Below, piece after piece: positions 107-25,465 of a stretch of 64,000 bases of DNA. The stretch comes from a virus: the IMG/VR virus record IMGVR_UViG_3300017917_001914, positions 1-64,000 of that record; one strand, given 5' to 3'. The notes below the pieces were generated by a model, which saw nothing but the letters and a program-made list of their open reading frames with translations, searched no databases and was not told where the DNA came from. The position numbers and the translations under genes were made by a program. Numbering within the stretch: position 1 is the first letter of the stretch; each line of letters opens with the position of its first letter.

Positions 107-529
107 ATGCAACAATCTATAACAATCAATAGTGTTAACTATGATGGGGAAATCGCTAACATCATTTTTAAACCGGACATTGAAGATATTACGATAAATT
201 TGGGGGAACAAATTCTCCCATTTTTATTTAGACCTTATTTGTTAACACCTCCAAGAGATGTTTATGGGGTCTACACTATTATAGTTAAGTTTAACGGGAT
301 TGAATGTCCGAACATTTTAAATGTTCCAAGACCAACCCCCACACCAACACCAACCCCAACAATGACAAGTACTCCGACACCAACATCAACATCAACACCT
401 ACTCCGACACCAACCGAAACAAAATGTGTTCCATTTCCAACACCAACACCGACAACAACCTCAACCTCAACACCTACTCCAACACCCACACCAACAACGA
501 CTTGTACCAACCCTTGTGGTTGTCCATAA
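107..529 (+). CDS. Small Pro/Thr-rich (mucin-like) putative virion protein
   Basis: About 70-aa globular N-terminus, then (PT)n and (ST)n tracts punctuated by Cys, ending CTNPCGCP; followed by a terminator hairpin. Confidence 0.75.
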   Translation: MQQSITINSVNYDGEIANIIFKPDIEDITINLGEQILPFLFRPYLLTPPRDVYGVYTIIVKFNGIECPNILNVPRPTPTPTPTPTMTSTPTPTSTSTPTPTPTETKCVPFPTPTPTTTSTSTPTPTPTPTTTCTNPCGCP

Positions 530-536
530 TAAAATT

Positions 537-568
537 AAATCCTCCAATAAAATGGGGGATTTTTTTTT
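537..568 (+). terminator. Intrinsic terminator
   Basis: aaatcctcca-ataaaa-tgggggattt stem followed by a T run. Confidence 0.7.
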
Positions 569-626
569 ACATAAGAAAAAAAAATATTGTTTTTAGTATT
601 GATGGGGCAAATACTCATTTCACAAG

Positions 627-634
627 TATTTATA
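627..634 (+). promoter_or_regulatory. TATTTATA putative late-promoter motif upstream of the fibre gene
   Basis: The same motif lies upstream of about 16 gene starts on the coding strand (see findings). Confidence 0.55.
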
Positions 635-658
635 GGATAAATAAGTTTATACATATAG

Positions 659-3600
659 ATGGCAAATATACCTATTTCACAGTTACCACAAGCATTTTCG
701 GCATATCCGGAATCCTTATTAGTCATAGTAAACTATGACCTGGTGACTACAGGACAAACAAATTACATATATTATTCAGCCTTAACCGCTCAATTTAGTG
801 CCGGTACATCGGGTACGTCAGGTACATCGGGCACATCCGGTACAAGTGGAAAAAGTTTTACTTGGAAAGGTGTTTGGTCGGCTTCAATTAATTATATTGA
901 AGGCGATGTGGTATACTATAATGGTAGTTCATATGTTGCGACAACAACAATACCTTCAGGTGGTTCTTCTCCTGATACTAATTTTAGTTGGGGTCTAATT
1001 GCTCAAGCGGGAACAAGTGGTACTGATGGTACGTCAGGAACAAGTGGTGATGACGGAACTTCAGGAACTAGTGGAGCAGATGGTACTTCCGGTACTAGCG
1101 GTGTAAATGGGACAAGTGGTTCTTCTGGTACATCGGGAGCAGGGGTTGCAAACTATTATGCAACATATAGTAGTTCCCAAACTCAATACGCAACATCGGC
1201 AAATACCGAATATATTGCGACTTATGATACAGTTGAAATTGAAAATGGGATTTCAATTATTGATGGGTCAAAAATCACGGTTCAATATAGTGGTATTTAC
1301 GAAATTGGGTACTCACCAATGGTTGAAAAAAAATTATTTAATGGTGACTTAGACGTTAATATTTGGTTAAAAGTAAATGGGAATAATGTTGATAGGTCAA
1401 ATAGTGTTGAAGGTTTTATAAATCCGGATATTAAAGCGTTACCGTATGTACAAACAATACTTCAATTAAATCAAGGAGATTATATTGAAATCGCCTATTC
1501 TGCAACTAAAACAGGAGTACAATTAACAGCTGTTAGTGGGCAGACATCTCCATTAATACCGGCAGCACCATCAATAATTGTTGATATTAAAAATGTTGGT
1601 GTGGCTGCGGTCGCATATACTTCAACATCAGGTACTTCAGGTACTCGAGGAACGTCAGGTACAAGTGGTTCGTCAGGTACAAGTGGTTCGTCAGGTATTA
1701 ACGGTACAAGTGGAACATCAGGTACAAGTGGTTCAGATGGTACTTCAGGCACAAGTGGAACATCAGGTACAAGTGGTTCAGATGGTACTTCAGGCACAAG
1801 TGGAACATCGGGAACAAGTGCGACATCAGGTACAAGTGGTTCTTCAGGTATTAATGGTACTTCAGGTACTAGCGGAACAAGTGGAACTTCAGGGACAAGT
1901 GGAACAACCGGAACATCAGGAACGAGTGGAACAACCGGAACATCAGGAACGAGTGGTACTTCAGGTTCAGATGGTACATCAGGTACTAGCGGAACATCAG
2001 GTACGGATGGTACATCAGGTACTAGCGGGACGGATGGAACTTCAGGGTCTAGTGGAACATCAGGTACGGACGGAACATCAGGTACTAGCGGTACTGACGG
2101 GACTTCAGGGACAAGTGGAACAGATGGTACGTCAGGTACATCAGGAACTGGTGGTTTAAATGGTACATCAGGTACGAGCGGTTCAGACGGAACTTCAGGT
2201 ACGAGTGGAACAGATGGAACTTCAGGTACAAGCGGTACGGATGGTACTTCAGGAACTAGCGGTACGGATGGAACTTCAGGAACTTCAGGTACAAGCGGTT
2301 CAGATGGAACTTCAGGAACAAGCGGTACGGATGGAACTTCAGGAACAAGCGGCACAGATGGTACTTCGGGAACTAGCGGAACAGATGGAACTTCAGGAAC
2401 TAGTGGTTCAGATGGGACTTCGGGTACGGATGGAACTTCAGGTACTAGTGGTACAGACGGAACTTCAGGTACTAGTGGAACGGATGGTACTTCGGGAACT
2501 AGCGGAACAGATGGTACTTCAGGTACGTCAGGAACTAGTGGTTCAGATGGTACATCAGGAACTAGTGGTACTTCAGGAACAAGCGGTACAGATGGTACTT
2601 CGGGTACATCAGGAACTAGTGGTACTTCAGGAACAGATGGTACTTCGGGTACTTCGGGTACGGACGGAACTTCAGGAACAAGCGGTACAGATGGTACTTC
2701 GGGTACTTCGGGTACGGACGGAACTTCAGGAACAAGTGGTACAGATGGTACATCAGGTACTAGTGGAACAGATGGTACTTCAGGAACAAGCGGTACGGAT
2801 GGTACTTCGGGAACTAGTGGTTCAGATGGTACTTCAGGTACTAGCGGGACAGATGGTACATCAGGTACTAGTGGAACAGATGGTACTTCGGGAACTAGCG
2901 GAACAGATGGAACTTCAGGAACTAGTGGTTCAGATGGGACTTCGGGTACAAGTGGAACTTCAGGAACAAGTGGTACAGATGGGACTTCAGGAACAAGCGG
3001 GACAACAGGTACTTCAGGTACAAGCGGTACGGACGGAACTTCAGGAACTAGTGGAACTTCAGGAACAGATGGTACTTCAGGTACTAGTGGAACTGATGGG
3101 ACTTCGGGTACAAGTGGAACTAGCGGAACAGATGGTACTTCAGGTACAGATGGTACTTCAGGGACTAGTGGAACAGATGGTACTTCAGGTACTAGTGGAA
3201 CAGATGGTACTTCAGGTACTAGTGGAACTGATGGGACTTCGGGTACAAGTGGTACTAGCGGAACAGATGGTACTTCGGGAACTAGCGGAACAGATGGAAC
3301 TTCAGGAACTAGCGGAACAGATGGGACTTCAGGAACTAGCGGGACAGATGGAACATCAGGAACTAGCGGTACTGATGGGACTTCAGGTACGAGTGGAACA
3401 AATGGTACATCAGGAACAAGCGGTACAGACGGAACTTCAGGAACTAGCGGTACGGATGGTACATCAGGAACTAGCGGTACGGATGGTACATCAGGTACTT
3501 CAGGAACGAGTGGTTCAGATGGTACATCGGGCAGTTCAGGTACGTCAGGAACTAGTGGTACATCAGGTTCAAGTGGAACAGATGGTACATCAGGAACTAG

Positions 3601-6600
3601 CGGTACATCAGGAACTAGCGGTACATCAGGAACAACAGGAACTTCTGGCACTAGTGGTTTAAGTGGTATCTCAGCGGGACTAACTTATTATTTCAATGAA
3701 AGTCAAAATTCTGATGTTTCAGGTTATAAAGTATTATCAACAATTCCTTCAAGTGCCACAACACAAACAGTTACAACGAATTTAACAGGAAGCCAACAAA
3801 ATGTATTGGTTTCCGATTATATAACACCTCAACTAGGTTTTGCAACAATACCTGCCGGTGTACAAAGATTTCATTTGCATTTCTTAAAACAAGCGAGTAA
3901 TGACGATATCGACGCTTATGTTGAAATACAATTAGCGGATTCAACAGGAACACCTATTGGGTCAACAATTACATCTAATGTTGCGTTAATTGGTTGGGTT
4001 AGTGCCGTAATACCGGTTGAACTTGTTGTTGATATTGTATTACCAACAACAACTATTGACCCAACAAATAGAATGATTGTTAGATTATATCTTAACAATA
4101 ATGATGCTGTTGCACATTCAGTGGTTTATTACACTGAAGGTAATTCGTATTATTCATTTGTTACAACATCAGTTGGTTCGGTCGCTGGAAGTGCGGGTAC
4201 AAGTGGTAGTTCAGGTACAAGTGGTTCAGACGGTACTTCGGGAACTAGTGGAACAGATGGTACTTCAGGCACAAGCGGAACAGATGGTACTTCAGGAACT
4301 TCAGGTACAACGGGTACATCAGGAACGAGTGGTTCAGACGGAACATCAGGAACTAGTGGTACATCAGGTACATCAGGAACTAGCGGAACAGATGGGACAT
4401 CAGGGACTAGTGGAACAGATGGAACATCAGGTACAACAGGTACTTCAGGAACTAGTGGTACAAGTGGTACAGATGGGACATCTGGTACGAGCGGAACTAC
4501 AGGTACTTCAGGTACTTCAGGTACAAGTGGTTCAGACGGAACATCAGGAACTAGCGGTACATCAGGTACATCAGGCTCAAGTGCAACATCAGGAACTTCA
4601 GGTTCAAGTGCGACATCAGGAACTTCAGGTACAAGTGCAACGTCAGGAACATCGGGTACAAGTGCAACGTCAGGAACATCTGGTACGAGCGGAACTACAG
4701 GTACTTCAGGTACTTCAGGTTCGAGTGCGACATCAGGTACTTCAGGTTCGAGTGCGACATCAGGAACTTCAGGTACAAGTGCAACTTCAGGAACATCGGG
4801 TTCTTCAGGTGTTAATGGAACATCAGGAACAAGTGGAACATCAGGTACATCAGGTACATCAGGAACATCAGGTTCGAGTGGTATTTCTCCAACAGGTTTA
4901 GTTGCCTCTAATTATGTTGCTAAAGGTTACAAAAACGGAAGTGCTCAAACTATTCCAAACAACACGGATACAGTTGTAACATTTATAGATGATTTTGACC
5001 CTCAAGGTTGGATTACATCTAATAAATTTCAACCAACAATTGAAGGGTATTACCATATTCAAGTTGCAGTATGGTGGGATGCAGGTTCTGTTACTAATAA
5101 CCAAAATAATATTCAAGTTAGAAAAAATGGTAGTACTCAAGTTGCTATTCAACAAGCTCAAATTTTAACAGGTTCTGGATATGGTCAAGAAATTGATATT
5201 ATAATATATTTTAATGGTACTACAGATTACATTGAAGTAACAGCATTTACTGGTAACCCAACATCTCAAAATATAAATGGTGCTAGTTCAGGTACTTGGA
5301 TTACCGGAGCATTGATTGTGGGTGGTGGTTCATCAGGTACATCGGGAACATCAGGAAGTAGTGGTACAACAGGTACAAGTGGAACTTCAGGTTCATCAGG
5401 AGCCAATGGTTCTTCAGGTACAAGCGGAACAACAGGTACTTCAGGAACTTCAGGTTCAAGTGCTACTTCAGGAACTTCAGGTACAACAGGTACTTCGGGA
5501 ACAAGTGGTTCGTCAGGTGTTAACGGAACTTCAGGTACATCAGGAACTACGGGTACAAGTGGAACTTCAGGTTCTTCTGCAACAAGTGGAACTTCAGGTT
5601 CATCAGGAGCTAATGGTTCTTCAGGAACTAGTGGAACAACCGGTACATCAGGTACAAGCGGTTCGTCAGGTGCTAATGGTTCTTCAGGAACTAGCGGAAC
5701 AACCGGTACAAGTGGAACATCAGGTTCAAGTGCGACTTCGGGGACATCAGGTTCTTCAGGAGCGAATGGTAGTTCAGGAACTAGCGGTACAACCGGTACA
5801 AGTGGAACATCGGGTTCAAGTGCAACATCAGGAACGTCAGGTTCATCAGGAGCCAATGGTAGTTCAGGAACTAGTGGAACAACGGGTACTTCGGGAACGA
5901 GCGGGTCAAGTGGAACATCCGGTTCATCAGGAGCCAATGGTTCTTCAGGAACAACAGGTACTTCGGGTACAAGTGGTTCAAGTGCAACTTCGGGAACATC
6001 AGGTTCTTCAGGAGCGAATGGTTCTTCGGGAACTAGCGGAACAACAGGAACAAGTGGTACGTCAGGTTCTTCAGGTACAAGTGGTTCTTCGGGAGCAAAT
6101 GGTTCTTCAGGAACTTCAGGTTCATCAGGAGCAAATGGTTCAAGTGGTACTTCAGGTTCTTCAGGAGCAAATGGTAGTTCAGGAACTAGCGGGACAACCG
6201 GTACTTCAGGAACATCAGGAGCGAATGGTAGTTCAGGTACTAGCGGAACAACAGGTACTTCAGGTACTAGAGGTACAAGTGGGACTTCAGGTTCATCGGG
6301 GGCAAATGGTAGTTCAGGAACATCAGGTTCGTCGGGAGCGAATGGTTCAAGTGGTACTTCAGGAACTAGAGGAACTAGTGGTACATCAGGTTCATCAGGT
6401 GCTAATGGTAGTTCAGGAACAAGTGGAACATCAGGTACTTCAGGTTCGTCAGGTGTTAATGGTAGTTCAGGAACATCAGGTACTTCAGGAGCTAATGGTA
6501 GTTCAGGAACATCAGGTACTTCAGGAACAAGTGGAACTACAGGAACATCCGGAACAAGTGGTTTATCAGGTGTTAACGGAACTAGTGGTACTTCAGGTGC

Positions 6601-11127: not shown

Positions 11128-11153
11128 AAAACCCTCATACGAGGGTTTTTTTT
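11126..11153. terminator. Bidirectional terminator between convergent genes
   Basis: aaaaaaccctc-atac-gagggtttttt. Confidence 0.8.
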
Positions 11154-14149: not shown

Positions 14150-14827
14150 TTAAATATTATATATGTGTATTATTACTTCTGTGTAATGTTCTATGAATTC
14201 ATCTGTCATTAAATTCCATTTAATGTTTACACCATCAATAGAGTATACCTCAACATTTATAAAATATTGTAAGTAAGTATTTCTAAAGTGTTTGAATTTT
14301 TCTTTTAAAATAGGGTCACCTAAATGCCATTCTCCGGCAATTTTTTTAACATTATTTTTAATGAATTCAAAATTTTCATCGTTAAAAATATCATATTCAC
14401 CACCTTCACAATCTGTTTTTAAAAAATTGATAGTTTCAAGATTGTATAGTTCACAAAGTTTTTTAAAGGTTATACCTTCCATTTGTTTTGCACCACCATA
14501 AATGTAATCACCATCAGTATATGTGTCGGTATTTGAAATACCTTTCAATATTGGTGTAACCGGATAACCGATTGTATTTTTAACTAATGTTGGAAATTCA
14601 TATTCACTTGGTTCAATACAATAAACGTGTTTTGGTTTTTTGGATAAAATACTATAAGTAAATGGCCCAACACTTGCACCAAAATCAACAACAATATCAC
14701 CTTCAGAAACTTCAAAGAATTTTTCATAAATTCTTTCAACAAATGTTTCTTGTGTAATTAGTTCTTTATGAAAGAGACCTTCTTCGGTCTGTCCCATCCA
14801 ACCCCAATCAAAATTATTGTAATCCAT
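14150..14827 (-). CDS. FkbM-family methyltransferase
   Basis: VVDFGASVGPF, YCIEP, FLKTDCEGGEY, GEWH. Confidence 0.85.
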   Translation of the reverse strand: MDYNNFDWGWMGQTEEGLFHKELITQETFVERIYEKFFEVSEGDIVVDFGASVGPFTYSILSKKPKHVYCIEPSEYEFPTLVKNTIGYPVTPILKGISNTDTYTDGDYIYGGAKQMEGITFKKLCELYNLETINFLKTDCEGGEYDIFNDENFEFIKNNVKKIAGEWHLGDPILKEKFKHFRNTYLQYFINVEVYSIDGVNIKWNLMTDEFIEHYTEVIIHIYNI

Positions 14828-17800
14828 TATAGTAAATGTTGAATTTGTTGTATTACCATTTCAGGTGTTATTGATTTATGACATTCAAATTGTTTTTCAG
14901 TTCCTTTATTAACAGGACACCAATTCCAATCACCCTTATCAAAGGTAAACTCAGGTTTATTCCAACATCCGTTACAAACTGAATGATTTACAATTCTAGT
15001 ACAATTAAACATAAACTCATGCTCCTCATTTGTAAAGTTAGAAATCATAACAACTTGTTTACCTAATCCCCAAGCTAACCAAGATAAACCGCTGGATAAT
15101 CCGATAAAAAATTCACTATGGTGAATAACATTCATTGTATGATGAATTGATGTATTTTTAATCTTGTTTGCATTTTCAAACGGATTATCTTCTTTGGATA
15201 CGTTTATTACTTTATATCCTAAACCATGAAGATAGTTGATTAATACTTGCCAACCTTCTCTTGTCCAAAATTTACAACCTGCCGTTGAATTAGTTGCTAT
15301 GGTAACATATTTCTTTTGATAAGGTCTTGGGTGAATAGTGTTATGTATATTAGGTTTAATCTCTTTAAATTCTAATCCTAATATGTTGGTAATTGTCTGT
15401 TGTAATGGGATTGTGTTTGGTAATACAGGTTCTTTATCGGTATTGTAAAACCATCCGATAGTATACATAGCATAAAGATTATGTACTGTTGTTCCCGGAA
15501 CAACAAATTCAATTTCAGAATATTCATTTTCAAATAAATGATTCCAAAAAGTGGATACAATAACTTTACAATTATGTTTCTTTTTAAATTCTAAAACATA
15601 TGGAATCCAAGCAATTGAATCCCCTAAAGATTTACTATCGAAAGATATGTAAACTCTTTTATTTGTTAAGTCCATCGTGTTATCATAGATTACCTCATTA
15701 TCTCGAGTAACAACTGCTCTCCATTTGGTGTAATAACTTCTATTTAATTTAACCCAATGATTTGGTTTTATGGTATTTTCATAATGACAAACACCTTTTT
15801 CATCAAAGAATTTTACATTATAATCTTTGTCTCCCGTTCCTTTTATTTCTAAGAATGGTTCTTTAACAAAATGTTGAAATATTTGTACTTCATTATCTAT
15901 CATCGTTTGTTTTTTAATTGGTTCGTTTAATATTTTTTGGTATAACTCGTAATTTTTTTCTGCAAACTCTTTTATGGTATATTTTGGAAATTCATAATAA
16001 ATTTCATCTTTAATTAAATCCAAAAGTTGGTTTTTCATATCAAAAATATCTCCGGATATTTGTTTAATGTAAGGTGTGAACATATCCATATATTGAGGTA
16101 AGTTTCTTGCTAAAATTTTTAGTCCATAAGAAATTCCTTCTCTTAATACCAGTGGATTACATTCCCAAGTTGAGTTAAACATTAGAACATCAGCAGCACA
16201 CATAAATTCACTAACATTATCCTTTTCACCCCATACTCTAACATTGCTTGGTAAATCATTCATAATTGGCTCCCAATATTCTTGGAAGTTAGGTGCTTGA
16301 TTTCCTATGAAATGAAATTCTAATTCTGGGTAAATACCCTCAACCAATCTTGCAATTTCAACACCTTCACCTTGATTTTTACCTGATGTCCACAATCCAA
16401 CATTTATGATGTGAATTTTGTTTGGGTCTAAACCTAACTTTTCTTTATTGGTTTCTTTAGATATTACTATTGTTGGGTTATATGGAAATTCAATTACTTC
16501 ACCATATGATGGCATGTTCATAAAGGTCACTTCTTTATGGAAAGGAGAACAAAACGCATATGCTTCAGGATGGAATATTTTTTCACTATCCGGTTGAAAT
16601 ATTACATTATGACAAGTTTCAACAACTCTCCATGTTCGGTCATTTTTATAAATAAAATTCATTAAGTCATTTGATAGTTTGTTGTGAGCGTCAAACGCCT
16701 CAATCATTTCATCTAAGTGAATTACATCAAAATAATTCTCTTCAATAATTTTCTTTAACTCATTTTTATCTTGACCTAATGTCCAATAATGTGTTGGTGG
16801 TATTAGTTCTTTGATTTTATTTCTTTGTACCACATAATGGTCACTATGGTTTGAATATTCAACAACAAATAGTTCTACCTTCTCACTATATAAACCTAAT
16901 AATGATTCGATTCGTTTTAATAAGAATGATGGCATTCCTCCGGTTGATAGGTGTGGTGCCAAAAATAAAACTCTAATTTTTTCTTTATGATGATTTTTTA
17001 TTTTAGATATTATTTTACCCATTTCTAAAATGTTTTTTTCACCGTGAATAAATAATAAGTCATCTTTTTTATTTGGTATTTTAACCCATAAACTTTCTTC
17101 ATTAATATTATAGTTTGAATAGATTTTATCTATCAATTCTAAATTTCCATTAGCATAAATGTAAGGTAATCCATCAAATATTAATTTTTTCCATAATAAA
17201 ACATTTAAGATAGTTTCTTCATTATATGCCGCATAATATGGAATATCATTTAATACTTCAGGGTGAATACACATTTGATACCACTCATAAAGAAAATCAG
17301 TACATTTTTCATTGGCAACATAATAACCTGTCTGTCTATATTTTTGTCTAACATATTGATTAACATTAAATAATTCACACGCCGGATGTTCTAATGTTGT
17401 CGACATATCTTCTCTAGTCATTGCACCACCTCTTTCACCTATGTGTAGAAAATCATAAATTCCCTCAACAAAATATGGATAATCTTTTGTGTTATCATAT
17501 AAGTCAAAAATTTTATCAACATATGGTGTTGCAATGGAATCACAATCAACAAATGCAACCATTTTAGAGTATTTAGACAATACATCTTTAGTGATTAAAG
17601 GTTTTTGTACTAAAATATTATATATGGTTTTGTTAGTTCTATTAATGTAAAAATTATCACCCTCTTGAATATATCGTTCCGTGTTATCGTCGACTAAATT
17701 TAAATTCCACATTATGGTTGCAACATCTTTAATTCCAACCATTTTGTTTGAGTTAATAAGGTATAAAAATATTGGTAAGTCACTATATTCTCGGATTGAT

Positions 17801-19170
17801 TTAATACACATTTTAGCAACATCAAAATAATTTTCTGTGGCATATAGAACATAAGCTTTCTCTACCTTGTCTTTAATGATTAAAGGTTCTCTTTTTGGGT
17901 ACGAAGTATTAATAAGATTATGGTGGTGTATTTGAGTTGACATATATTGTAACCCAATTTCGTTTTCTAATAATAATTCTCTAACCGGTGAATTAAATTG
18001 GTTTGTTTTGTATTTTGATAATAATTCAATAATACCTTTGCTATAAGCAATTGGGCCGGTAACCCTCAATACGGTTTCTTTATCTGACCCCCCAATATAA
18101 TTTTTAATATTTTCTTTAACAATTTCAATTACTCGATGTAAAAATGGATGTTTTGGTCGACATATTATATGCCAATTTTGAAACTCACCAAACTGATATT
18201 TTAATTCATCCGCCCAATCCAAACCTTCCCAATGTGTTAACAGATACTCATCGGTCGGTAATAATGTTTCTTCCAATGGAATTGTGGTACAACTTTTAAT
18301 ATCTAAATAAACACCACCAACCTTATACATTAAAAGGTATCTAAAAAAATCAGATTTTGCTGACCCATAATTTGGATTAATACTTAAATAAAGATTTAAA
18401 GTTTCTTCATCATAATTTTCTTTAATAAAATTAAGACAATCTTCATCATTATAAAACCTGTATTCAAAAGTAGGGTTCATATCTTTTAACCTTTGAACCA
18501 CCTCACTTATTTCAGTTGGTAAATCATTAGTTTTATATGTTTGATGTATTACTCTAGGTATTAGAGGTTTCATTAATGTAATATCACTAATGTGTTTAAT
18601 AATTTGATATTCAGGTAATTCCGATATTAATTTATCAATTTCAACTTTGTTTGAAACACCATCGTGATATTCTAATGTTATTTTGTTTGGGATTGGAAAT
18701 GAATGTTCTTTACAATAGTTTAAAAAATCTCTAAAGATGATGTGGTCATGACCTTCAGTGTCAATTTTTAAATAATCTACCGACCCAACATTATAGGTGT
18801 CAATTAATGTTTTCCAACTAATTGTTGGTACGTTTTCTATGGTAACCAAACTATTGTATAATTCTTCACCTAATTCTTTAATTGCAAAAGGGTGGGGATT
18901 ATTGATTGAGTTACTTCCTCTAACCCACCAAGGTAAATTATTTTCCTCTATTTTCCAATCATCAATGTAGTAGACATCTACTTCACCATCTGTAGTAGAT
19001 AACGCCGCTTGGACTTTAATTACATTCTGTTTATTGGGTAATCTATTTATGTAATATTTTATTGGTTCAATACTAATACCGATTGTATCGTCATTTGCGG
19101 TTTCAATTAATGTATCAAAATCTGAAGTACCTATTTCAATAAAATCGTAATGTTTGAGGTTTAACGACAT
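14827..19170 (-). CDS. Multidomain enzyme: FkbM methyltransferase + GT32-like + GT-A + GT4 + TibC/Aah-like protein heptosyltransferase
   Basis: FIEIGTSDF...YLKIDTEGHD; IPRVIHQT...KSDFFRYLLMYKVGGVYLDIK...TGP; FVDCD...YNEETILN; HLSTGGMP...NVGLWTSGKNQ...ECNPLVLRE; SKSLGDSIAW...FIGLSSGLSWLAW...CNGCW...WCP...FECHKSIT. Confidence 0.85.
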   Translation of the reverse strand: MSLNLKHYDFIEIGTSDFDTLIETANDDTIGISIEPIKYYINRLPNKQNVIKVQAALSTTDGEVDVYYIDDWKIEENNLPWWVRGSNSINNPHPFAIKELGEELYNSLVTIENVPTISWKTLIDTYNVGSVDYLKIDTEGHDHIIFRDFLNYCKEHSFPIPNKITLEYHDGVSNKVEIDKLISELPEYQIIKHISDITLMKPLIPRVIHQTYKTNDLPTEISEVVQRLKDMNPTFEYRFYNDEDCLNFIKENYDEETLNLYLSINPNYGSAKSDFFRYLLMYKVGGVYLDIKSCTTIPLEETLLPTDEYLLTHWEGLDWADELKYQFGEFQNWHIICRPKHPFLHRVIEIVKENIKNYIGGSDKETVLRVTGPIAYSKGIIELLSKYKTNQFNSPVRELLLENEIGLQYMSTQIHHHNLINTSYPKREPLIIKDKVEKAYVLYATENYFDVAKMCIKSIREYSDLPIFLYLINSNKMVGIKDVATIMWNLNLVDDNTERYIQEGDNFYINRTNKTIYNILVQKPLITKDVLSKYSKMVAFVDCDSIATPYVDKIFDLYDNTKDYPYFVEGIYDFLHIGERGGAMTREDMSTTLEHPACELFNVNQYVRQKYRQTGYYVANEKCTDFLYEWYQMCIHPEVLNDIPYYAAYNEETILNVLLWKKLIFDGLPYIYANGNLELIDKIYSNYNINEESLWVKIPNKKDDLLFIHGEKNILEMGKIISKIKNHHKEKIRVLFLAPHLSTGGMPSFLLKRIESLLGLYSEKVELFVVEYSNHSDHYVVQRNKIKELIPPTHYWTLGQDKNELKKIIEENYFDVIHLDEMIEAFDAHNKLSNDLMNFIYKNDRTWRVVETCHNVIFQPDSEKIFHPEAYAFCSPFHKEVTFMNMPSYGEVIEFPYNPTIVISKETNKEKLGLDPNKIHIINVGLWTSGKNQGEGVEIARLVEGIYPELEFHFIGNQAPNFQEYWEPIMNDLPSNVRVWGEKDNVSEFMCAADVLMFNSTWECNPLVLREGISYGLKILARNLPQYMDMFTPYIKQISGDIFDMKNQLLDLIKDEIYYEFPKYTIKEFAEKNYELYQKILNEPIKKQTMIDNEVQIFQHFVKEPFLEIKGTGDKDYNVKFFDEKGVCHYENTIKPNHWVKLNRSYYTKWRAVVTRDNEVIYDNTMDLTNKRVYISFDSKSLGDSIAWIPYVLEFKKKHNCKVIVSTFWNHLFENEYSEIEFVVPGTTVHNLYAMYTIGWFYNTDKEPVLPNTIPLQQTITNILGLEFKEIKPNIHNTIHPRPYQKKYVTIATNSTAGCKFWTREGWQVLINYLHGLGYKVINVSKEDNPFENANKIKNTSIHHTMNVIHHSEFFIGLSSGLSWLAWGLGKQVVMISNFTNEEHEFMFNCTRIVNHSVCNGCWNKPEFTFDKGDWNWCPVNKGTEKQFECHKSITPEMVIQQIQHLL

Positions 19171-19273: not shown

Positions 19274-20350
19274 ATGCAAGTAATTGAAATAACAAGTTTA
19301 TCCGGTCATTCCCCATTTAATATCTCAATATGTGATATAACATTAACTTATTGTTATGTGGTAGCAACCGGTGTTGTATCAGTTCCTCCTATATTAGAAT
19401 TACCGATACCGGTTCAATTAGAAGGTGCTCAACAAATTATAGTTAAAGTTGTTGACTCAATTGGTTGTCAAGAATTACTTTTACAGAGTTGTCCGGGAAC
19501 TCCAACTCCAACACCAACTCAAACCCCAACCCCAACACCTACAAATGTAATCATCTGTAATTGTATTTCATTCAAAAATACAACTTCAGGTAATTTAAAT
19601 TTTAGTTATACTCAGTGTGATGGTACAATATTTAATGGAGATGTTCAATCAGGAACTACCTTATATTATTGTGGTAGATTACCATCAGCGGATGTTGGTG
19701 TTGATATAACAATTTATGAGGTATGTTTTGATAATACTTGTCCTGATTCAGTTTTAACTCCAACACCAACACCTACTCAAACATCAACTCCGACACCAAC
19801 TCCAACACAAACATCAACTCCAACGACAACACCTACGCAAACACCAACGCCTACTGAAACTCCAACATCAACACCAACTGAAACTCCAACATCAACACCA
19901 ACTGAAACTCCAACATCAACTCCGACACCAACACCTACGCAAACACCAACATCAACGCCAACTGAAACTCCAACGTCAACACCAACTGAAACACCAACAT
20001 CAACACCAACTGAAACTCCAACATCAACGCCAACTGAAACTCCAACGTCAACACCTACACCAACACCAACGTCGACACCAAATCCAAATTGTTATTATTA
20101 TGACGTAACAATAAGTGGTACAGATTTAGCGGCGTCAACAGGTAATTCTTCATACCCTAATAATACTGTTTTCGTTAATTATACGGATTGTTTTGGTGGT
20201 TCTGTGTCAACACCTTATACTGTTGCGGGGACTTATTTTAATGATATTTGTGCTGATGATACACAACCAATAGTTGTCTTATATTATCAAAATGATTTGG
20301 CTTATTTAACTATAAGTAGTTTTGTGACCCAACAAGGTAATTGTCCGTAA
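19274..20350 (+). CDS. Pro/Thr-rich mucin-like putative virion protein with Cys-containing globular domains
   Basis: TPTPTQ and (TPTETPTS)n tracts between Cys-rich beta domains. Confidence 0.8.
19760..20085 (+). repeat. Tandem 24-bp repeat encoding (TPTETPTS)n
   Basis: acaccaactgaaactccaacatca-type units repeated. Confidence 0.85.
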
Positions 20351-20415
20351 TAATTAACTAATAATATTTATCTTTCAATTCAAATCATTATATTTTGTGT
20401 AAAAACAAGAGATAA

Positions 20416-21663
20416 ATGAAAATATTTGTACAGATAGCTTCCTATCGTGACCCCCAACTTATACCAACACTTGATAGTATGTTGGCAAACGCAAAAAGAC
20501 CAAATAATTTAAGAATAGGTATATGTCGTCAATATCATCCTGAAGACGGGTTTGATAATTTAGATAACTTTAAAAAAGATAAAAGATTTAGAATTAAAGA
20601 TGTTTTATATTCTGAATCCAAAGGAGTTTGTTGGGCACGTAATCAAGTACAACAATTATATGATGGTGAGGAGTACACCCTTCAAATAGATTCTCATATG
20701 AGATTTGAAAAAGATTGGGACACTACCTTAATCAAAATGATTAAACAACTTCAAAAGAAAGGATTTAAGAAACCATTATTAACCGGTTATGTTTCGTCAT
20801 TTGACCCTGAAAATGACCCGGCAGGTAGAGTTAAAGAACCATGGAGAATGGTATTTGATAGATTCATTCCTGAAGGTGCGGTATTCTTTTTACCTGAAAC
20901 AATTCCTGGTTGGGAAAAACTAAAACAACCAATTACATCTCGTTTTTATTCTGCTCATATGGCATTCACATTAGGTCAATTTAGTGTGGAGGTTCAACAC
21001 GACCCTGAATTTTATTTTCATGGGGAAGAAATTTCTATTGCCGTTAGAGCGTTCACTCACGGATATGATTTATTTCACCCACATAAAACAGTAATTTGGC
21101 ACGAATATACTCGTAAGAATAGAACCAAACAATGGGATGATGATAAAGAGTGGGGTAAAAAGAATGAATTATCACACAAGAAAAATAGACAATTGTTTGG
21201 AATGGATGGTGAAGAAGTTACTATGGATTTTAGTAAGTATGGATTTGGTACTGAAAGAACTTTACGTGATTATGAAATTTATTCAGGTCTTAAATTTTCA
21301 AATAGAGCCGTCCAACAATATACATTAGACAAAAAATATGCACCAAACCCTACAATTTACGAAACTGAAGAAGAATGGTTAGAAAGTTTTGCAAGAGTAT
21401 TTAAACATTGTATCGATATATCATTTAATCAAGTACCTGAAAAAGATTATGAATTTTGGGTGGTTGCATTTCATGACGAAAATGATTTAACGTTATATAG
21501 AAAAGATGCGGACATCAATGAGATAAATAGAATGATGAAAGACCCTGATGGGTATTGTAAAGTTTGGAGAGATTTTCAAACAACATCAAAACCAAAATAT
21601 TGGGTTGTATGGCCATATAGTACATCAAAAGGGTGGTGTGATAGAATAATTGGTGATTTATAA
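20416..21663 (+). CDS. GT60-like polypeptide GlcNAc-transferase (Pfam GlcNAc family, Skp1 Gnt1-like)
   Basis: IFVQIASYRDP, GVCWAR, YTLQIDSHMRFEKDWD, FHGEEISIAVRAFTHGYDLFHP. Confidence 0.85.
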   Translation: MKIFVQIASYRDPQLIPTLDSMLANAKRPNNLRIGICRQYHPEDGFDNLDNFKKDKRFRIKDVLYSESKGVCWARNQVQQLYDGEEYTLQIDSHMRFEKDWDTTLIKMIKQLQKKGFKKPLLTGYVSSFDPENDPAGRVKEPWRMVFDRFIPEGAVFFLPETIPGWEKLKQPITSRFYSAHMAFTLGQFSVEVQHDPEFYFHGEEISIAVRAFTHGYDLFHPHKTVIWHEYTRKNRTKQWDDDKEWGKKNELSHKKNRQLFGMDGEEVTMDFSKYGFGTERTLRDYEIYSGLKFSNRAVQQYTLDKKYAPNPTIYETEEEWLESFARVFKHCIDISFNQVPEKDYEFWVVAFHDENDLTLYRKDADINEINRMMKDPDGYCKVWRDFQTTSKPKYWVVWPYSTSKGWCDRIIGDL

Positions 21664-21666
21664 TTT

Positions 21667-22227
21667 ATGGTTGTTGTTATATGTCATTTTAAAGAAAATC
21701 TTGATTGGGTTAAAAATTTAAAACATAAATACATAATCTACAATAAAAATTCTGAAGAACAACATTTATATGATATAAATTTACCAAATGTTGGATTTGA
21801 CACTATTGTGTATTTGAGTTATATAATTGATAACTATGATAATTTACCTGATTATGTTTGTTTTTCACAAGATGACCCATTTTTCCATTGTCCTTCGTTT
21901 CTAAATAAAGTTAATGAATTTGATTTTACAAAAAAATTTCAGCCGTTAGGAAAAACTTACATTAGAGACACCTTTGAATTAGACCTTACAATAGAATATG
22001 CAAATAAGAATGAAATAATTTATGAATTACCAATTAAATTTATTAATTCTGCACAATGTATTGTATCAAAAGAATTAATATTAAAAAGAACTAAAGAATC
22101 GTATCAACAAATAAAAGATTCAATTCCGTTGGAAGTTATTTCCAACATAAATTATTTAATAGAGTACTTGTGGCCCACAATATTAGGGTTTAACAATGAA
22201 CTAATGTTAAGTTTAAATAATTGTTAA
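21667..22227 (+). CDS. DUF3431-like putative glycosyltransferase
   Basis: VVICHFKENLDW, LPNVG, YLSYIIDNYDNLPDYVCFSQDDPFFH. Confidence 0.75.
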   Translation: MVVVICHFKENLDWVKNLKHKYIIYNKNSEEQHLYDINLPNVGFDTIVYLSYIIDNYDNLPDYVCFSQDDPFFHCPSFLNKVNEFDFTKKFQPLGKTYIRDTFELDLTIEYANKNEIIYELPIKFINSAQCIVSKELILKRTKESYQQIKDSIPLEVISNINYLIEYLWPTILGFNNELMLSLNNC

Positions 22228-22229
22228 TT

Positions 22230-23045
22230 ATGAAAAAAGCGTTACTAGGAGTTTCAAACAATATAAATCAACACATCTCAAAAATTAAAGTGTGGTCGGA
22301 TAGTTTTAAAAAATTTGTCGATGGGGATGTTATTTTATTATGTGCTAACTCAACAGAAGATGAGTTGAAAAAGTGTGAAGATATGGGTATTATACCAATA
22401 CCGGTTAATATTCAAGACACTTGGAGAATAAACCATAAACGACTTGAAAAAACTTTTGAATTTTTAGAGAAGTCGGATATTGAATTATTTTTAATAACAG
22501 ATGTTTTTGATGTTGTATTTCAATCAAACCCATTTGATAAAATGGATTTAAAATATGATGTATTTGTTGGAGGTGAAGGGGTATTAGTAAATGAAGAACC
22601 TTGGAATTCAGATTGGATTAATAAATTATTCCCTAATGATTATAATGAATGTAGAAGTCAAGAAGTAATATGTTCTGGTGTTATTGGTGGAAAAAGGTTA
22701 CCGTTAATTAATTTGTATAAAAGAATGTTTGAATTATGTGAAAATAGCACAAATCTTACGAATATTCAAGACCAAGCGGCATTAATTGTTATGGTTAAAA
22801 ATAAAGAGATTAATAATTTAAAAATTTTTAATCTTACGGATGGATGGGTTGTTCATTGTGCAATTGCTGGGCCAACTCAATTTTTTGAAAGTTTTGGATT
22901 TAAGGGTAATATTGAAAATAGATATGGAATTCCTAAATTAATTACTGATAAAATATGTACAAAGGCTGGTAACCCCTATGATATAGTACATCAATTTAAT
23001 AGAATTCCTGAATGGAATGAACTTTTAACTAAAAAATATGAATAA
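22230..23045 (+). CDS. GT-A fold glycosyltransferase-like protein (start probably MKKALL)
   Basis: LITDVFDVVFQSNPF, ICSGVIGG, DQAAL, IVHQFNR. Confidence 0.65.
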   Translation: MKKALLGVSNNINQHISKIKVWSDSFKKFVDGDVILLCANSTEDELKKCEDMGIIPIPVNIQDTWRINHKRLEKTFEFLEKSDIELFLITDVFDVVFQSNPFDKMDLKYDVFVGGEGVLVNEEPWNSDWINKLFPNDYNECRSQEVICSGVIGGKRLPLINLYKRMFELCENSTNLTNIQDQAALIVMVKNKEINNLKIFNLTDGWVVHCAIAGPTQFFESFGFKGNIENRYGIPKLITDKICTKAGNPYDIVHQFNRIPEWNELLTKKYE

Positions 23046-23793
23046 CATACATTGTATTTGCACAACACCTGACGTTTTTCCTGTTTACGTTAATAATTGG
23101 AATAATTTTCCAAAAGATAAAAAAGAGTTTGTTTGGTTGTCAGATGTTACAAGAGACCCCTCATTTGAGGTTGGATTTAAATTTACGGAACAAGACATTA
23201 GAAAAGAATTTAATTTTAATATTGATGTTAGTAAAAAAAATTTTTGGAATTCCCATGGTAATAGAAATATTGTTTGGTTTTTTGCCCATTTAAGAATGTT
23301 ATATTTTTATGTTAAAAATCCAAATTATGATTTTTATTGGTTTTTTGATGATGATATTAAGATGGAAAATTGGGATGAATTTTTTACTAACACCGATAAA
23401 GACAATTCGGATTTCCTATCATATTTTTGTTTTAAAAAAAATGGAGTAATTTCTCAAGAGAATGTTCCAACTATTGATGATAGAACTTTTTCAAAAAATG
23501 GATGGTTTGATAGATTTCCGGGGGATGGTGATATATTACCCGAACATATTAATGATATGTTTGGTTCATTTTTTCCAACAACAAGATTTTCTAATAGAGC
23601 ACTTTCAAAGTTATTAGAAATACATAAAAATGGATATTATGGTTATCATGAGGGATTTGTTCCTACAGTTTTAAATAAATATGGTTTTAAGTTAAGTTCA
23701 CTAATAAATTCAGACAACACTTCAAATTATTTTAACGTAAATGAAGTGAATATTCAACATAAAAATATTAAAGTAAATTGGGAATGGATATAA
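23038..23793 (+). CDS. Putative glycosyltransferase (DxD)
   Basis: PNYDFYWFFDDDI, FFPTTRFSNRAL, HEGFVPT; operon context. Confidence 0.55.
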   Translation: MNNIHCICTTPDVFPVYVNNWNNFPKDKKEFVWLSDVTRDPSFEVGFKFTEQDIRKEFNFNIDVSKKNFWNSHGNRNIVWFFAHLRMLYFYVKNPNYDFYWFFDDDIKMENWDEFFTNTDKDNSDFLSYFCFKKNGVISQENVPTIDDRTFSKNGWFDRFPGDGDILPEHINDMFGSFFPTTRFSNRALSKLLEIHKNGYYGYHEGFVPTVLNKYGFKLSSLINSDNTSNYFNVNEVNIQHKNIKVNWEWI

Positions 23794-24587
23794 ATAACCC
23801 TGTTATAGTAATGGCTCTATATGATATAGGTAGAGAAAATTGGAATAATTTTAGAATGTCTTACCATACTTATGGTTGGTGGATGAGAAATACATTATCG
23901 TTAGATAGTAATATTGTAGTATATACAGAATTTAAATTTATGGATGAACTTATTCGATATAGACAAGAATTTGACCCAAATTTAGAAAAAACAATTTTTA
24001 TTGATTTACCATTAAATGAATTACCAATTTATCAGAAATATTTTAATTCATTATCAAATTTGATGAATTCAGAATCTTTTAAAAATAAAGTAAGTTTTCA
24101 CGATGTTCCTGAAATGTGTCAACCATTGTATAATATTATAATGTTTAACAAAGTTTATTTTCTTAAAGATACTATTGATAAACAATATTTTAATAATGAT
24201 ATGGTTATATGGGCGGATGCCGGTGGTTTAAGAGAAGATGTTCAAAACTATCGTGGTCACAAATGGCCAAATATTGAAAAAATAAAATCTTTAGATAATT
24301 CTAAAATAACTTTTTTTAGTCATAATTCTGATTTTGATATCAAAATTGAGGATAGAGAATTTTATTCACTATCTCAAATTAGAAACATACAAGGGACTTC
24401 ATTTTTATTACCAAGTAATTTAATTGATAAATTTTTAAATATGATGTTAGAAACAATCGAAGAATGTATTGATAATAATTACATTGGAAGTGATGAAAAA
24501 ATATTTGATATTACTTATACAAAAAACAAAAACTTTTTTAATTTAATTAAATGTACTTGGAGAGAATACTTTGATATACTAAAATAA
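23784..24587 (+). CDS. HtrL/YibB (WlaTC)-like protein
   Basis: VMALYDIGR, YNIIMFNKVYFLK, WADAG, IGSDEKI. Confidence 0.7.
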   Translation: MDINNPVIVMALYDIGRENWNNFRMSYHTYGWWMRNTLSLDSNIVVYTEFKFMDELIRYRQEFDPNLEKTIFIDLPLNELPIYQKYFNSLSNLMNSESFKNKVSFHDVPEMCQPLYNIIMFNKVYFLKDTIDKQYFNNDMVIWADAGGLREDVQNYRGHKWPNIEKIKSLDNSKITFFSHNSDFDIKIEDREFYSLSQIRNIQGTSFLLPSNLIDKFLNMMLETIEECIDNNYIGSDEKIFDITYTKNKNFFNLIKCTWREYFDILK

Positions 24588-24619
24588 CAAATTACGTAGT
24601 ATTTATAATTAAAAAGAGT

Positions 24620-25465
24620 ATGGATTTTTTTATAAAGAAAAACGCAACTTTACCGGTATTAAAGTTACAAGTAGTTAAAGACGGAAGAAGTGACTACAAC
24701 AAGTTTATGGATATGATTGAAGAATCTGCCATTTTCTTTTCAATGGTTGACGTAGAAACAGGTATTCCAAAAATAAGTTCAAGACCTGCCGGGTTTGTTG
24801 AAAAAACTTTTGTTGATTTAAATGCCGAACCGGAATATTATATATACTATCAATTTACCCCAAGAGATACAAATAGAATCGGTAGGTATGCCGGTCAATT
24901 TATGTTAAGAAATTCCGATGGAGTTCTTATTTTGCCAATACGTGAAGAATTATTTATAAATGTTCAAGATTCTTTTATTGCCGATGATTTAGTTTATGAT
25001 AGTTGTTATGTGTCTGAATTTCCATGCTGTATTAATGGCCCATATACAACTACTACTACCACAGAATGTTGTCCTTGTACAACAACTACAACAACAATTA
25101 ATCACACAACAACAACTACTACGATTGTACCTGTATTAACAGAAATTACTTTAAACTTCGGTATTTTTGACGATATTGGTCATTTATTTATTAATTTTAG
25201 TGCTGACGGAGCACAATTAATTAAATGTATTGTTGAAGATTACGTATTAGCCCCACCATTTTATATTCTTGGTGGTACAAATTACTATGTTTATTCACCA
25301 TTCCAAGTAGGTAGTGTTTTTTACTCAGACCCAAATGGTCAAACAATCGCAATAATAAACAACGGAAACTATGTTATTAACGTAAACGGTTATCAAATAA
25401 TTAATGTTAATAATTCCACAATTAGTTCTATTGTTAATTTTAGTAATTTATTACCATGTCGTTAA
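24620..25465 (+). CDS. Putative virion structural protein (BppU-like N-terminal domain + Thr/Cys-rich linker)
   Basis: FFIKKNATLPVLK...YYQFTPRDT..GRYAGQF; TTTTTTECCPCTTTTTT linker. Confidence 0.6.
   Translation: MDFFIKKNATLPVLKLQVVKDGRSDYNKFMDMIEESAIFFSMVDVETGIPKISSRPAGFVEKTFVDLNAEPEYYIYYQFTPRDTNRIGRYAGQFMLRNSDGVLILPIREELFINVQDSFIADDLVYDSCYVSEFPCCINGPYTTTTTTECCPCTTTTTTINHTTTTTTIVPVLTEITLNFGIFDDIGHLFINFSADGAQLIKCIVEDYVLAPPFYILGGTNYYVYSPFQVGSVFYSDPNGQTIAIINNGNYVINVNGYQIINVNNSTISSIVNFSNLLPCR

Follow-up and report, generated by a model that had tools for sequence, protein, structure and literature searches.

Introduction

The characterized members of the bacterial autotransporter heptosyltransferase (BAHT) family, TibC and Aah, add glycan to Ser residues of protein substrates in the cytoplasm (PMC4358343). 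The glycans of the exosporium protein BclA have been proposed to hydrate or stabilize its collagen-like stalk (PMC8968730). Among the giant viruses, A064R of PBCV-1 combines two glycosyltransferase (GT) domains with a methyltransferase domain; L230 of Mimivirus, whose GT domain resembles the human collagen galactosyltransferase GLT25D1, glycosylates collagen-like proteins; and genes of sulfate metabolism are found in the glyco-cluster of a Moumouvirus (PMC9614988). Virion O-glycosylation was also reported for mycobacteriophages (Freeman et al. 2023, Cell Host Microbe 31:1216, as cited in PMC12619734). Thus far, virion glycosylation by virus-encoded enzymes has been shown only in a few phages (mycobacteriophages) and in giant viruses. 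Here, a DNA stretch of 64,000 nucleotides (nt) from the IMG/VR record IMGVR_UViG_3300017917_001914 (hereafter the window) was analyzed. A locus at its start, positions 107 to 25,465, carries a gene for a giant collagen-like fiber (g2), a gene for a five-domain enzyme ending in a TibC/Aah-type domain (g12), and further transferase genes.

A first-pass annotation of the window had proposed that the phage enzymes glycosylate the phage's own fiber. Every open reading frame (ORF) that it listed was recovered at the same position. The proposal gains support from the membership of the g12 domain in the TIGR04414 family, and from the co-occurrence of TibC-like and collagen-like genes among related phages. 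Judged from its gene families and this co-occurrence, the locus is rather likely to be a virion-fiber glycosylation island, with enzymes that would put sugar on the fiber of the same phage.

The TibC/Aah-type domain of the five-domain enzyme

The g12 gene (14827..19170, minus strand) encodes an enzyme of 1447 amino acids (aa), in which five domains were recognized using Pfam, NCBIfam, the PDB, and the ESM Atlas. From the N-terminal to the C-terminal, these are an FkbM methyltransferase domain (nt 18655-19170), a GT32-type DXD domain (nt 17911-18573), a GT-A domain (nt 16996-17883), a GT4 domain (nt 15946-16983), and a TibC/Aah-type protein O-glycosyltransferase domain (nt 14836-15828), all on the minus strand. 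The FkbM, GT32-type, and GT4 domains were assigned by Pfam, and the last domain by Pfam, TIGR04414, and PDB matches. The putative GT-A domain, in the segment of aa 425-730, is a lead from the Atlas only (PF03407/GT8-like, score 0.92).

TIGR04414, the equivalog model of the Aah/TibC O-heptosyltransferases, matches aa 1115-1445 of g12 with 272.8 bits, compared with a cut-off of 200. The C-terminal domain also matches the TibC structures (PDB 4rb4/4rap) with an E-value of 3e-47. The catalytic base of TibC, Asp110, is aligned to Asp1184 of g12 (SLGD). The sugar-binding residues Thr226, Lys230, and Trp305 are kept as Thr1296, Lys1300, and Trp1364, and Arg286 is replaced by Thr1345. All four Cys residues of the TibC iron finger (Cys339, Cys342, Cys358, and Cys370) are kept as Cys1399, Cys1402, Cys1418, and Cys1430. 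By these matches and residues, the last domain of g12 is a true relative of Aah/TibC.

The collagen-like giant fiber

The g2 gene (659..8680, plus strand) encodes a protein of 2673 aa, with 14 stretches that match the collagen family PF01391 (E 2e-174). An N-terminus of 48 aa is followed by (Gly-Thr-Ser/Asp)n blocks (nt 803-6658) and then by a β-roll tip. The protein contains 449 Gly-X-Y triplets, with a longest run of 169 triplets, and three globular inserts (aa 160-324, 1006-1176, and 1411-1556) break the stalk. Thr occupies the X position in 77% of the triplets, and the Y position is taken by Ser in 74% and by Asp in 14%; the repeats contain no Pro. The Ser codons are mixed (257 TCN and 144 AGY), and the 282 GTS triplets are spelled by 35 distinct 9-mers. 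Therefore, selection has acted on the repeat composition at the protein level. Antisense ORFs over g2 (1495-3651 and 5266-6828), which translate as 'PEVPLVP', are artifacts of the repeat.

The first-pass annotation had read g2 as a giant fiber rich in Ser-Gly, by analogy with proteoglycans that bear glycosaminoglycans (GAG) at Ser-Gly sites near acidic residues. There are indeed hundreds of Ser-Gly dipeptides (353), but the protein is a collagen triple-helix repeat protein. At least 319 of the 353 dipeptides fall within Gly-X-Y runs, as the Y-Gly junctions of G-T-S or G-T-D triplets. The Ser-Gly sites near Asp are thus a by-product of the collagen triplets, and the GAG analogy was abandoned.

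The distal part of g2 (6683..7870, plus strand) consists of about 25 repeats of about 15 aa (xIGGGxxNxxxxxxS; period 14-17 residues), and resembles the head of trimeric autotransporter adhesins (UspA1 head, PDB 3pr7, E 2e-14). Such a tip is compatible with a trimer, and neither Pro nor hydroxyproline is found in the stalk repeats. The g2 protein is predicted to be a trimeric fiber, with a trimeric tip on a trimeric collagen stalk.

Co-occurrence of the TibC-like enzyme and collagen-like fibers

At least 219 relatives of the TibC-like domain were found in IMG/VR, and 80 loci with 61-99% identity were kept. The region of about aa 430-1447 of g12 (GT-A, GT4, and TibC-like domains) forms a conserved core in most of these loci, and in 38 of the 80, the TibC-like gene has an FkbM methyltransferase gene after it. 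Collagen-like ORFs, defined by at least 10 Gly-X-Y triplets, were sought within 10 kb of the TibC-like gene, and 80 polymerase-centered loci (1.44 Mb) were used as controls. A collagen-like ORF stands beside the TibC-like gene in 48/80 loci, compared with 1/80 controls; such neighbors are nearly always convergent and immediately downstream of the TibC-like gene. When the enzyme was clustered at 75% identity, the pairing was kept in 14 of the 16 informative clusters. Five records had no adjacent collagen-like ORF, and all five have one elsewhere, including a complete 114.6-kb phage and a 326-kb phage. The distant collagen genes in TibC-positive genomes, at 47-130 kb from the enzyme gene, also have Gly-Thr/Ser-Ser repeats.

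The same pattern was found among the close relatives. The collagen family PF01391 is present in 4/20 long records (G004, G009, G010, and G011); the TibC-like domain is present in exactly these four and in 0/16 of the others. Ten of the 16 TibC-negative relatives cover the syntenic region, and two of these are complete genomes. On the polymerase tree, the joint TibC and collagen label requires at least three changes; therefore, joint gain or loss of the pair has occurred repeatedly. An independent distribution of the enzymes and the repeat proteins, which the first-pass annotation had named as evidence against its proposal, does not describe the main pair: the two occur together in 4/4 versus 0/16 relatives, and are neighbors in most of the 80 loci.

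The linked collagen-like ORFs share their repeat type. Among 44 distinct linked ORFs, Thr or Ser occupies the X position in about 70-100% of the triplets (Thr alone in about 40-90%), Ser occupies the Y position in 40-96%, and there is almost no Pro; one ORF of only 10 triplets is an outlier. The domains at the N-terminus and at the C-terminus differ, and the Gly-Thr/Ser-Ser repeat is the sole common feature. Therefore, the repeat is what stays constant in the partner of the TibC-like enzyme. The β-roll tip (GGxxN, UspA1-like) was also considered as a general TibC acceptor, by analogy with AIDA-I and TibA, and was rejected, as it occurs in only 4/45 linked ORFs, whereas Gly-Thr/Ser-Ser triplets are found in all of them except one short outlier. 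Several linked collagen-like ORFs have tails that look by eye like S74-type intramolecular tail-fiber chaperones. Together with the UspA1-head-like tip of g2, these tails point to virion fibers.

The pairing is still seen at 47-48% enzyme identity, in contigs from metagenome-assembled genomes (MAGs), and at 41% in the cultured Microcystis phage Mel-JY01 (GenBank PP395634.1; L369, nt 1-8430). In Mel-JY01, the collagen-like ORF (plus strand, nt 2-3049) consists of (G-T/S-S)n repeats and is at least 1016 aa long. A 'structural protein' comes next, and then a protein of 1226 aa named 'methyltransferase FkbM', which resembles TibC at its C-terminus (41% identity). The collagen-like gene was entered in GenBank as two antisense 'PLVPEVP' ORFs. 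A search of the literature on TibC-like enzymes with collagen in phages, or on Mel-JY01, found no paper describing the pairing.

TibC-like domains were also seen in the metagenomic megaphages LR756501/LR756503 (735 kb) and LR756504 (636 kb), with 49% and 38% identity. In the 326-kb relative (L099, 11600-20930), a by-eye reading of the region 3' of the TibC-like gene found radical S-adenosylmethionine-like, methyltransferase, and carbamoyltransferase-like ORFs, and four small ORFs like 2-oxoglutarate (2OG)-Fe(II)/prolyl hydroxylases. This gene set may be an alternative decoration toolkit.

Other transferases of the locus

Several other transferase genes lie around g2 and g12. The g3 gene (8762..9796, plus strand) encodes a 344-aa GT4-like protein of the GT-B type. 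It has no match in the Pfam or NCBIfam profiles, and was assigned by its ESM Atlas features (score 0.98; about 200/256 features in common), for which the top clusters are all Glycos_transf_1. The g4 protein (9793..11127, plus strand; 444 aa) has an N-terminal GT25 domain (aa 11-191; PF01755, E 2.4e-21) and an unassigned C-terminal half. The human GLT25D1 is a member of this GT25 family. The g5 protein (11152..12027, minus strand; 291 aa) is a weakly GT9-like GT-B protein, right at the Pfam threshold (PF01075, 22.3 bits versus a cut-off of 22). The g11 protein (14150..14827, minus strand; 225 aa) is an FkbM-family methyltransferase (PF05050, E 1.8e-7; TIGR01444, 39.6 bits versus a cut-off of 37.7). 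The g14 protein (20416..21663, plus strand; 415 aa) resembles the GT60 polypeptide GlcNAc-transferases (PF11397, E 2.8e-71, 241 bits versus a cut-off of 21), and contains a DSH motif at aa 92-94.

Downstream of g14, four putative transferase genes (g15 to g18) are tightly packed at 21667..24587 on the plus strand. The g15 protein belongs to DUF3431 (PF11913, E 1.5e-14), and g18 belongs to HtrL/YibB (PF09612, E 2.4e-26), with a match to TIGR02192 of 85 bits that is under the cut-off. The g16 protein has a weak match to a PHROG glycosyltransferase (phrog_1579, E 6e-4), and g17 has no match. The PHROGs were uninformative for g1, g13, g16, g17, and g19.

About a dozen GT domains had been counted in the first-pass annotation. 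Eight of these are supported, six by Pfam, g3 by its Atlas score of 0.98, and the GT-A domain of g12 by the 0.92 lead only; up to four more (g15, g16, g17, and g18) are putative only. Similarly, two of the three methyltransferase domains that it had noted were confirmed as FkbM domains (g11 and the N-terminus of g12), and the third was not.

The sulfation genes

A group of genes on the minus strand, between g5 and g11, is related to sulfation. The g10 protein (13327..14148; 273 aa) is a sulfotransferase of the type dependent on 3'-phosphoadenosine 5'-phosphosulfate (PAPS), matching PF13469 (E 1.9e-18, 68 bits versus a cut-off of 27) and PF00685 (E 9e-14). Both PAPS-binding motifs are intact, the 5'-phosphosulfate-binding motif PRSGST at aa 12 and the 3'-phosphate-binding motif RDIRAIYSS at aa 115. 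The earlier assignment of a sulfotransferase is thus well supported by the two families and both motifs. The best NCBIfam match, under the cut-off, is NoeE, the Nod-factor sulfotransferase (E 5e-8). NoeE sulfates a Nod-factor sugar, which is a weak hint that the target of g10 may be a glycan.

The g9 protein (12856..13314; 152 aa) resembles the kinases of adenosine 5'-phosphosulfate (APS). It was called an APS kinase in the first-pass annotation, and this holds in so far as the Pfam cut-off is passed (PF01583, E 5.6e-17, 62.6 bits versus a cut-off of 21.1) and the motifs are kept (P-loop GQPGAGKTT, DGD, and SPY); the protein is short, and falls under the NCBIfam cut-off (TIGR00455, 64.5 bits versus 138.7; model positions 20-123 of 184). 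The g8 gene (12477..12887), which overlaps the APS kinase gene by 32 nt, encodes a 136-aa HxGH nucleotidyltransferase (GRWQPLHLGH ... ISATKIR; PF01467, E 5e-8). The HxGH nucleotidyltransferase that had been noted is therefore present, but it is nearest, by sequence and by fold, to nicotinamide mononucleotide adenylyltransferase (NMNAT) or phosphopantetheine adenylyltransferase (PPAT), not to ATP sulfurylase. NMNAT is the top match in the PDB and NCBIfam; the match to the ATP-sulfurylase family PF01747 (E 3.5e-4, 20.5 bits) is under the cut-off of 24.3; and in the fold search, with a mediocre AlphaFold2 (AF2) model (predicted local distance difference test, pLDDT, 65), the ATP sulfurylase 2gks was found at rank 28. 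As the sequence and fold searches gave generic NMNAT/PPAT matches only, g8 was ruled out as a recognizable ATP sulfurylase or heptose-1-phosphate adenylyltransferase. Its genomic linkage to g9 and g10 is the sole reason to consider g8 a tentative candidate for a minimal ATP sulfurylase, a role that is less likely than not. Two small ORFs, g6 (72 aa) and g7 (77 aa), lie at 12029..12480; g6 has no family match and co-travels with the sulfation trio.

The sulfation set (g10, g9, and g8, with g5 and g6) is present within 10 kb of the TibC-like gene in only 11-13 of the 80 TibC-like loci; g5 is found with g6, g8, g9, and g10 in 12 of the 80. The g8 gene occurs only where g9 and g10 are also present (11 loci, no exception). 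Because the trio is restricted to these few loci, sulfation of the glycan, though plausible, is an optional add-on.

PT linkers and poly-Thr tracts

The first-pass annotation had grouped four Ser/Thr-rich proteins, including g2, as one acceptor set. PT or poly-Thr tracts are present in the other three ORFs, at 107, 19274, and 24620. The g1 protein (107..529, plus strand; 140 aa) has a small N-terminal domain followed by PT/TST linker tracts; it has no Pfam match, and its repeat part has a weak match to PHROG 15511. The g13 protein (19274..20350, plus strand; 358 aa) is a Cys-containing protein of the PT-linker family with long linker repeats. The GT60-like g14 has 392 relatives in IMG/VR, of which 80 loci with 75-95% identity were examined. 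A PT-linker ORF of the g13 family is directly upstream of the GT60 gene in 65/69 informative loci, and g19 is downstream in 58/80. An ORF of the g13 family is also upstream of the TibC-like gene in 29/80 TibC-like loci, and PT-linker proteins are found without GT60 among the relatives. The link between the PT proteins and GT60 is thus one of conserved synteny, not of independent co-occurrence. From this arrangement, the GT60-like enzyme probably acts on the PT linkers that flank it, as a second module.

The g19 protein (24620..25465, plus strand; 281 aa; AF2 pLDDT 85) contains an N-terminal β-sandwich of 125 aa, three TTTTTT tracts, and a variable C-terminal part. The N-terminal domain is kept in 53-58 relatives, whereas the C-terminal extensions vary from 0 to 1300 aa. 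In the PDB, the structures most similar to it are chains of phage baseplates (9m8o_P, 6v8i_AN, and 4v96_AA), although the similarity is weak (TM-score about 0.5). From its structural model and its conserved N-terminal domain with variable extensions, g19 is a probable baseplate-attached fiber or decoration protein. Two further poly-Thr/Ser tracts, TTTTSTSTTTTTT and TTTTSTSTTSTTT, are located at 37104..37190 (plus strand) in the tail sheath (36183-39596; phrog_23, E 2e-56). The tracts of g19 and of the sheath co-vary across the relatives, and they track a g61-family gene (PHROG-4417; contig positions 88941-89921), being found in 7/7 records with this gene versus 1/12 without it. The poly-Thr tracts were therefore rejected as acceptors for the enzymes of this locus, as they do not follow GT60 and do follow a gene outside the locus; they would belong to a third system. 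Thus, the four Ser/Thr proteins do not form a single acceptor set.

Proposed mechanism and alternative explanations

The proposed scheme is built on the observed gene families, conserved catalytic residues, and co-occurrence; its acceptor and sugar, the target of sulfation, and the function are inferences from these. While the fiber is still unassembled in the host cytoplasm, g12 would start O-glycosylation with its TibC/Aah-type domain, on the Ser/Thr hydroxyls of Gly-Thr-Ser triplets. The GT4, GT-A, and GT32 domains fused to it, and the neighboring GT4-like, GT25, and GT9-like enzymes, would then lengthen the glycan, and the FkbM methyltransferases would O-methylate it. In this phage and in a minority of its relatives, the APS kinase and the PAPS-dependent sulfotransferase may sulfate the glycan, with g8 possibly supplying APS. 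The glycan might hydrate or stabilize a triple helix without proline or hydroxyproline, and might shape the fiber surface for adsorption or protection. In the cuticle collagen of Riftia, the triple helix is stabilized by glycosylated Thr.

No membrane helices are predicted in the enzymes of the locus, nor was a membrane protein of the flippase, Wzy, Gtr, or O-antigen ligase type seen in it, which fits a cytoplasmic modification of the fiber subunits before assembly. A phage-encoded pathway for heptose or nucleotide-sugar activation was rejected, since neither GmhA/SIS_2 nor NTP_transferase (sugar-1-phosphate nucleotidyltransferase) was found in five near-complete TibC-positive relatives. Therefore, the host would supply the activated sugars, which the phage may tailor; NAD-dependent epimerases/dehydratases are encoded in 4/5 of these relatives, often beside the module. 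Heptose as the transferred sugar is uncertain, as Arg286 is not kept in g12 and the five relatives lack a heptose pathway. No 2OG-Fe(II) hydroxylase was found on this contig.

Several observations weigh against fiber glycosylation by this locus. The β-hairpin thumb of TibC (Phe265/Val266), which is required for its dodecameric ring, is gone in g12, with a deletion of about 10 residues in the alignment, and the heptose-binding Arg286 is Thr. The known substrate of TibC is a β-helix, not a collagen helix. The GT25, GT9, and HtrL/YibB families are classically those of the lipopolysaccharide (LPS) core. The sugar-activation genes are missing from the five relatives, the APS-kinase-like g9 is short and below its NCBIfam cut-off, and one complete relative (G020) has a sulfotransferase on its own, without TibC or collagen. 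In the reverse direction, the co-occurrence is weaker: a TibC-like gene is present in 13/33 records with a (GTS)6-coding stretch, and in 2/5 near-complete ones. Therefore, such fibers do not strictly need a TibC-like enzyme. Finally, the main evidence is co-occurrence of mostly physically linked genes, so hitch-hiking in a cassette could give part of the signal.

Such hitch-hiking, in which the enzymes and the fiber share a mobile hypervariable cassette without an enzyme-substrate tie, would leave other virion proteins (PT, poly-Thr, or capsid) or free glycan as the targets. The genes are adjacent in most loci and would be gained or lost together, the sequence upstream of the polymerase varies strongly, the PT-linker proteins adjoin the TibC-like gene in 29/80 loci, and many (GTS)n-bearing records lack TibC. 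However, collagen genes at a distance of 47-130 kb carry the same triplet, the repeat is the only common feature of 44 linked ORFs with different termini, and the pairing survives to 41-48% enzyme identity; on balance, hitch-hiking is an unlikely explanation. The LPS-core associations raise a different alternative, namely that the enzymes remodel glycans of the host envelope (LPS core, capsule, or surface glycoproteins), for example for a superinfection block or for release, and that the fiber is merely nearby. GT25, GT9-like, and HtrL/YibB are best known from LPS core loci; the transferases of the LPS core are also soluble or peripheral, so the missing helices are compatible with this explanation; and NoeE, the nearest named sulfotransferase, acts on a lipo-oligosaccharide. 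Remodeling of the envelope is nevertheless distinctly unlikely, as the cassette-defining domain falls in the protein-specific Aah/TibC equivalog, and tracks Gly-Thr-Ser collagen genes (unlinked ones too) across predicted hosts from Bacteroidota to Microcystis; in addition, membrane proteins of the flippase, Wzy, Gtr, or O-antigen ligase type are absent from the locus.

A proteoglycan-like coat, with sulfated GAG-like chains on Ser-Gly near Asp that would mimic the polysaccharides bound by a glycan-foraging host, is highly improbable. The sulfotransferase, the APS kinase, the many Ser-Gly dipeptides, and a host that is probably a member of Bacteroidota would agree with such a coat, but at least 319/353 of the dipeptides are Y-Gly collagen junctions, profile searches of the locus detected no xylosyltransferase-like or GAG-polymerase-like family, and most loci with the same fibers have no sulfation genes. 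It is scarcely credible that the transferases modify the phage DNA, by glycosylation of hypermodified bases. Phage glycosyltransferases are reported to act on DNA often (10.1101/2023.12.21.572611), but the families present here act on proteins or glycans, and the profile searches of the locus turned up no 5-hydroxymethylcytosine or 5-hydroxymethyluracil pathway, DNA-glycosyltransferase family, or base-modifying enzyme.

Glycosylation of the phage's own fiber, which we prefer, could also be extended to a more general proposal. Many aquatic phages, with genomes from about 110 kb to over 700 kb and hosts from Bacteroidota to Microcystis, would build half-micrometer fibers of a Pro-free Gly-Thr-Ser collagen helix, which would fold or be stable only through a TibC-type O-glycan cover, glycosylation replacing hydroxyproline. 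Here the cover would also be methylated and sulfated, with the 136-aa NMNAT-like protein as a minimal non-canonical ATP sulfurylase. Taken as a whole, this extended proposal is doubtful.

Genome, phage type, and host

The window covers the first 64 kb of a virus contig of 99,206 bp, and codes for a family-B DNA polymerase, a head-tail adaptor, a 1137-aa tail sheath, helicases, and a recombinase. Judged by this gene set, the phage is contractile-tailed. The contig is 34% complete by CheckV; its full-length relatives have 294-322 kb, and one of them has direct terminal repeats. By this comparison, the contig holds about a third of the genome, of about 300 kb, of a jumbo myophage, an uncultured lake or freshwater phage. 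Therefore, the absence of genes cannot be asserted for the whole phage. The same holds for the nucleotide-sugar synthesis genes, which the first-pass annotation had not seen: with about 34% of the genome on the contig, their absence is not assertable for this phage.

More than 300 relatives of the polymerase were found in IMG/VR, with 73-95% identity, and a comparison with cultured phages gave no close relative. The polymerase (25563-28490) has 975 aa here and in a few relatives, compared with 922-930 aa in most, owing to an insertion of about 47 aa. A 512-aa protein (30060-31598, minus strand) has an N-terminal half that resembles, by eye, an Fe/Mn superoxide dismutase (HYNKHY..., DLWEHAYYL), fused to an unassigned C-terminal half.

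All host clues agree, and the host is probably a member of Bacteroidota. SprB is an adhesin repeat typical of gliding Bacteroidota cells. A 984-aa protein of the contig (81224-84178; L003, 1224-4175) contains SprB repeats (PF13573, E 4e-26) and PT linkers, and counts as one such clue. In addition, near-identical or related TibC-like genes occur on short contigs (L244-L248) that were binned with MAGs of Chitinophaga (94% identity), Sediminibacterium, Bacteroides, Saprospirales, and Ignavibacteriaceae; the contigs are probably of phage origin and fell into the bins of their hosts. The 'moraphages' are a freshwater jumbo lineage with predicted Bacteroidota hosts (PMC12619734), and this phage may belong to them.

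Comparison with known systems

The module is widespread: besides megaphages and one cultured cyanophage, at least 219 contigs of IMG/VR carry it. It joins a family of protein-specific glycosyltransferases, for which adhesins of pathogens are the only known setting, with a Pro-free type of collagen. If the proposed pairing is true, the substrate range of the BAHT family would be extended, and a natural test would be available of whether O-glycans can replace hydroxyproline in triple-helix stabilization. Sulfated and methylated glycans would be added to the surface repertoire of phages, with a bearing on adsorption, on stickiness to mucus and particles, and on resistance to proteases and grazing; if the sulfation is true, no other sulfated glycoprotein would have been described before for a bacterial virus. 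A systematic annotation error, the placing of such collagen genes on the opposite strand (PP395634.1 is an example), would also be corrected. Mel-JY01 could serve as a laboratory model of the module, and the enzyme-acceptor pair could be a tool of glyco-engineering for collagen-like biomaterials in E. coli.

The mycobacteriophages also encode glycosyltransferases, which modify their own capsid and tail proteins. Other enzymes are reportedly used there, the acceptors are C-terminal extensions of the capsid and tail tube, and no collagen-like fiber, methylation, or sulfation module is known to be involved. The giant viruses with A064R, L230, and the Moumouvirus cluster (PMC9614988) share with this locus the virus-coded multi-domain enzymes of GT and methyltransferase domains, which act in those viruses on their own structural proteins. 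They also share a GT25-like enzyme paired with viral collagen-like proteins, and sulfate on the fibril glycans is predicted. However, their hosts are eukaryotic, the families and linkages differ, and L230 works via hydroxylysine, whereas the g2 repeats are almost without Lys.

BclA and the exosporium collagen-like glycoproteins of Bacillus and C. difficile (PMC8968730) have a Thr-rich collagen-like stalk, as g2 does, and theirs bears O-glycans. The order of N-terminal anchor, collagen region, and C-terminal globular domain is also similar in BclA and g2. BclA is far shorter than g2, its triplets are mostly GPT with Pro retained, and no sulfation is known for it. To our knowledge, the glycosylation enzymes of BclA are unrelated to TibC.

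The TibC-TibA and Aah-AIDA-I systems of E. coli (BAHT; TIGR04414; PDB 4RAP/4RB4; PMC4358343) are similar in that the gene of a soluble cytoplasmic enzyme lies next to that of a very large surface protein, which is repetitive and rich in Ser. The g12 domain passes the equivalog cut-off, and keeps the catalytic Asp, 3/4 of the sugar-binding residues, and the four-Cys iron finger; the tip of g2 also resembles an autotransporter adhesin head. However, the proposed acceptor of g12 is a Gly-Thr-Ser collagen-like helix on a phage virion, whereas theirs is the β-helix passenger domain of a secreted adhesin. The g12 domain is fused to four other transferase domains, lacks the dodecamer thumb, and has Thr in place of Arg286. 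The close phage relatives are without a heptose pathway, so the sugar may not be heptose. By these comparisons, the new element is a BAHT-type enzyme paired with a proposed acceptor on phage fibers that is collagen-like and Pro-free, accompanied here by methylation and sulfation modules.

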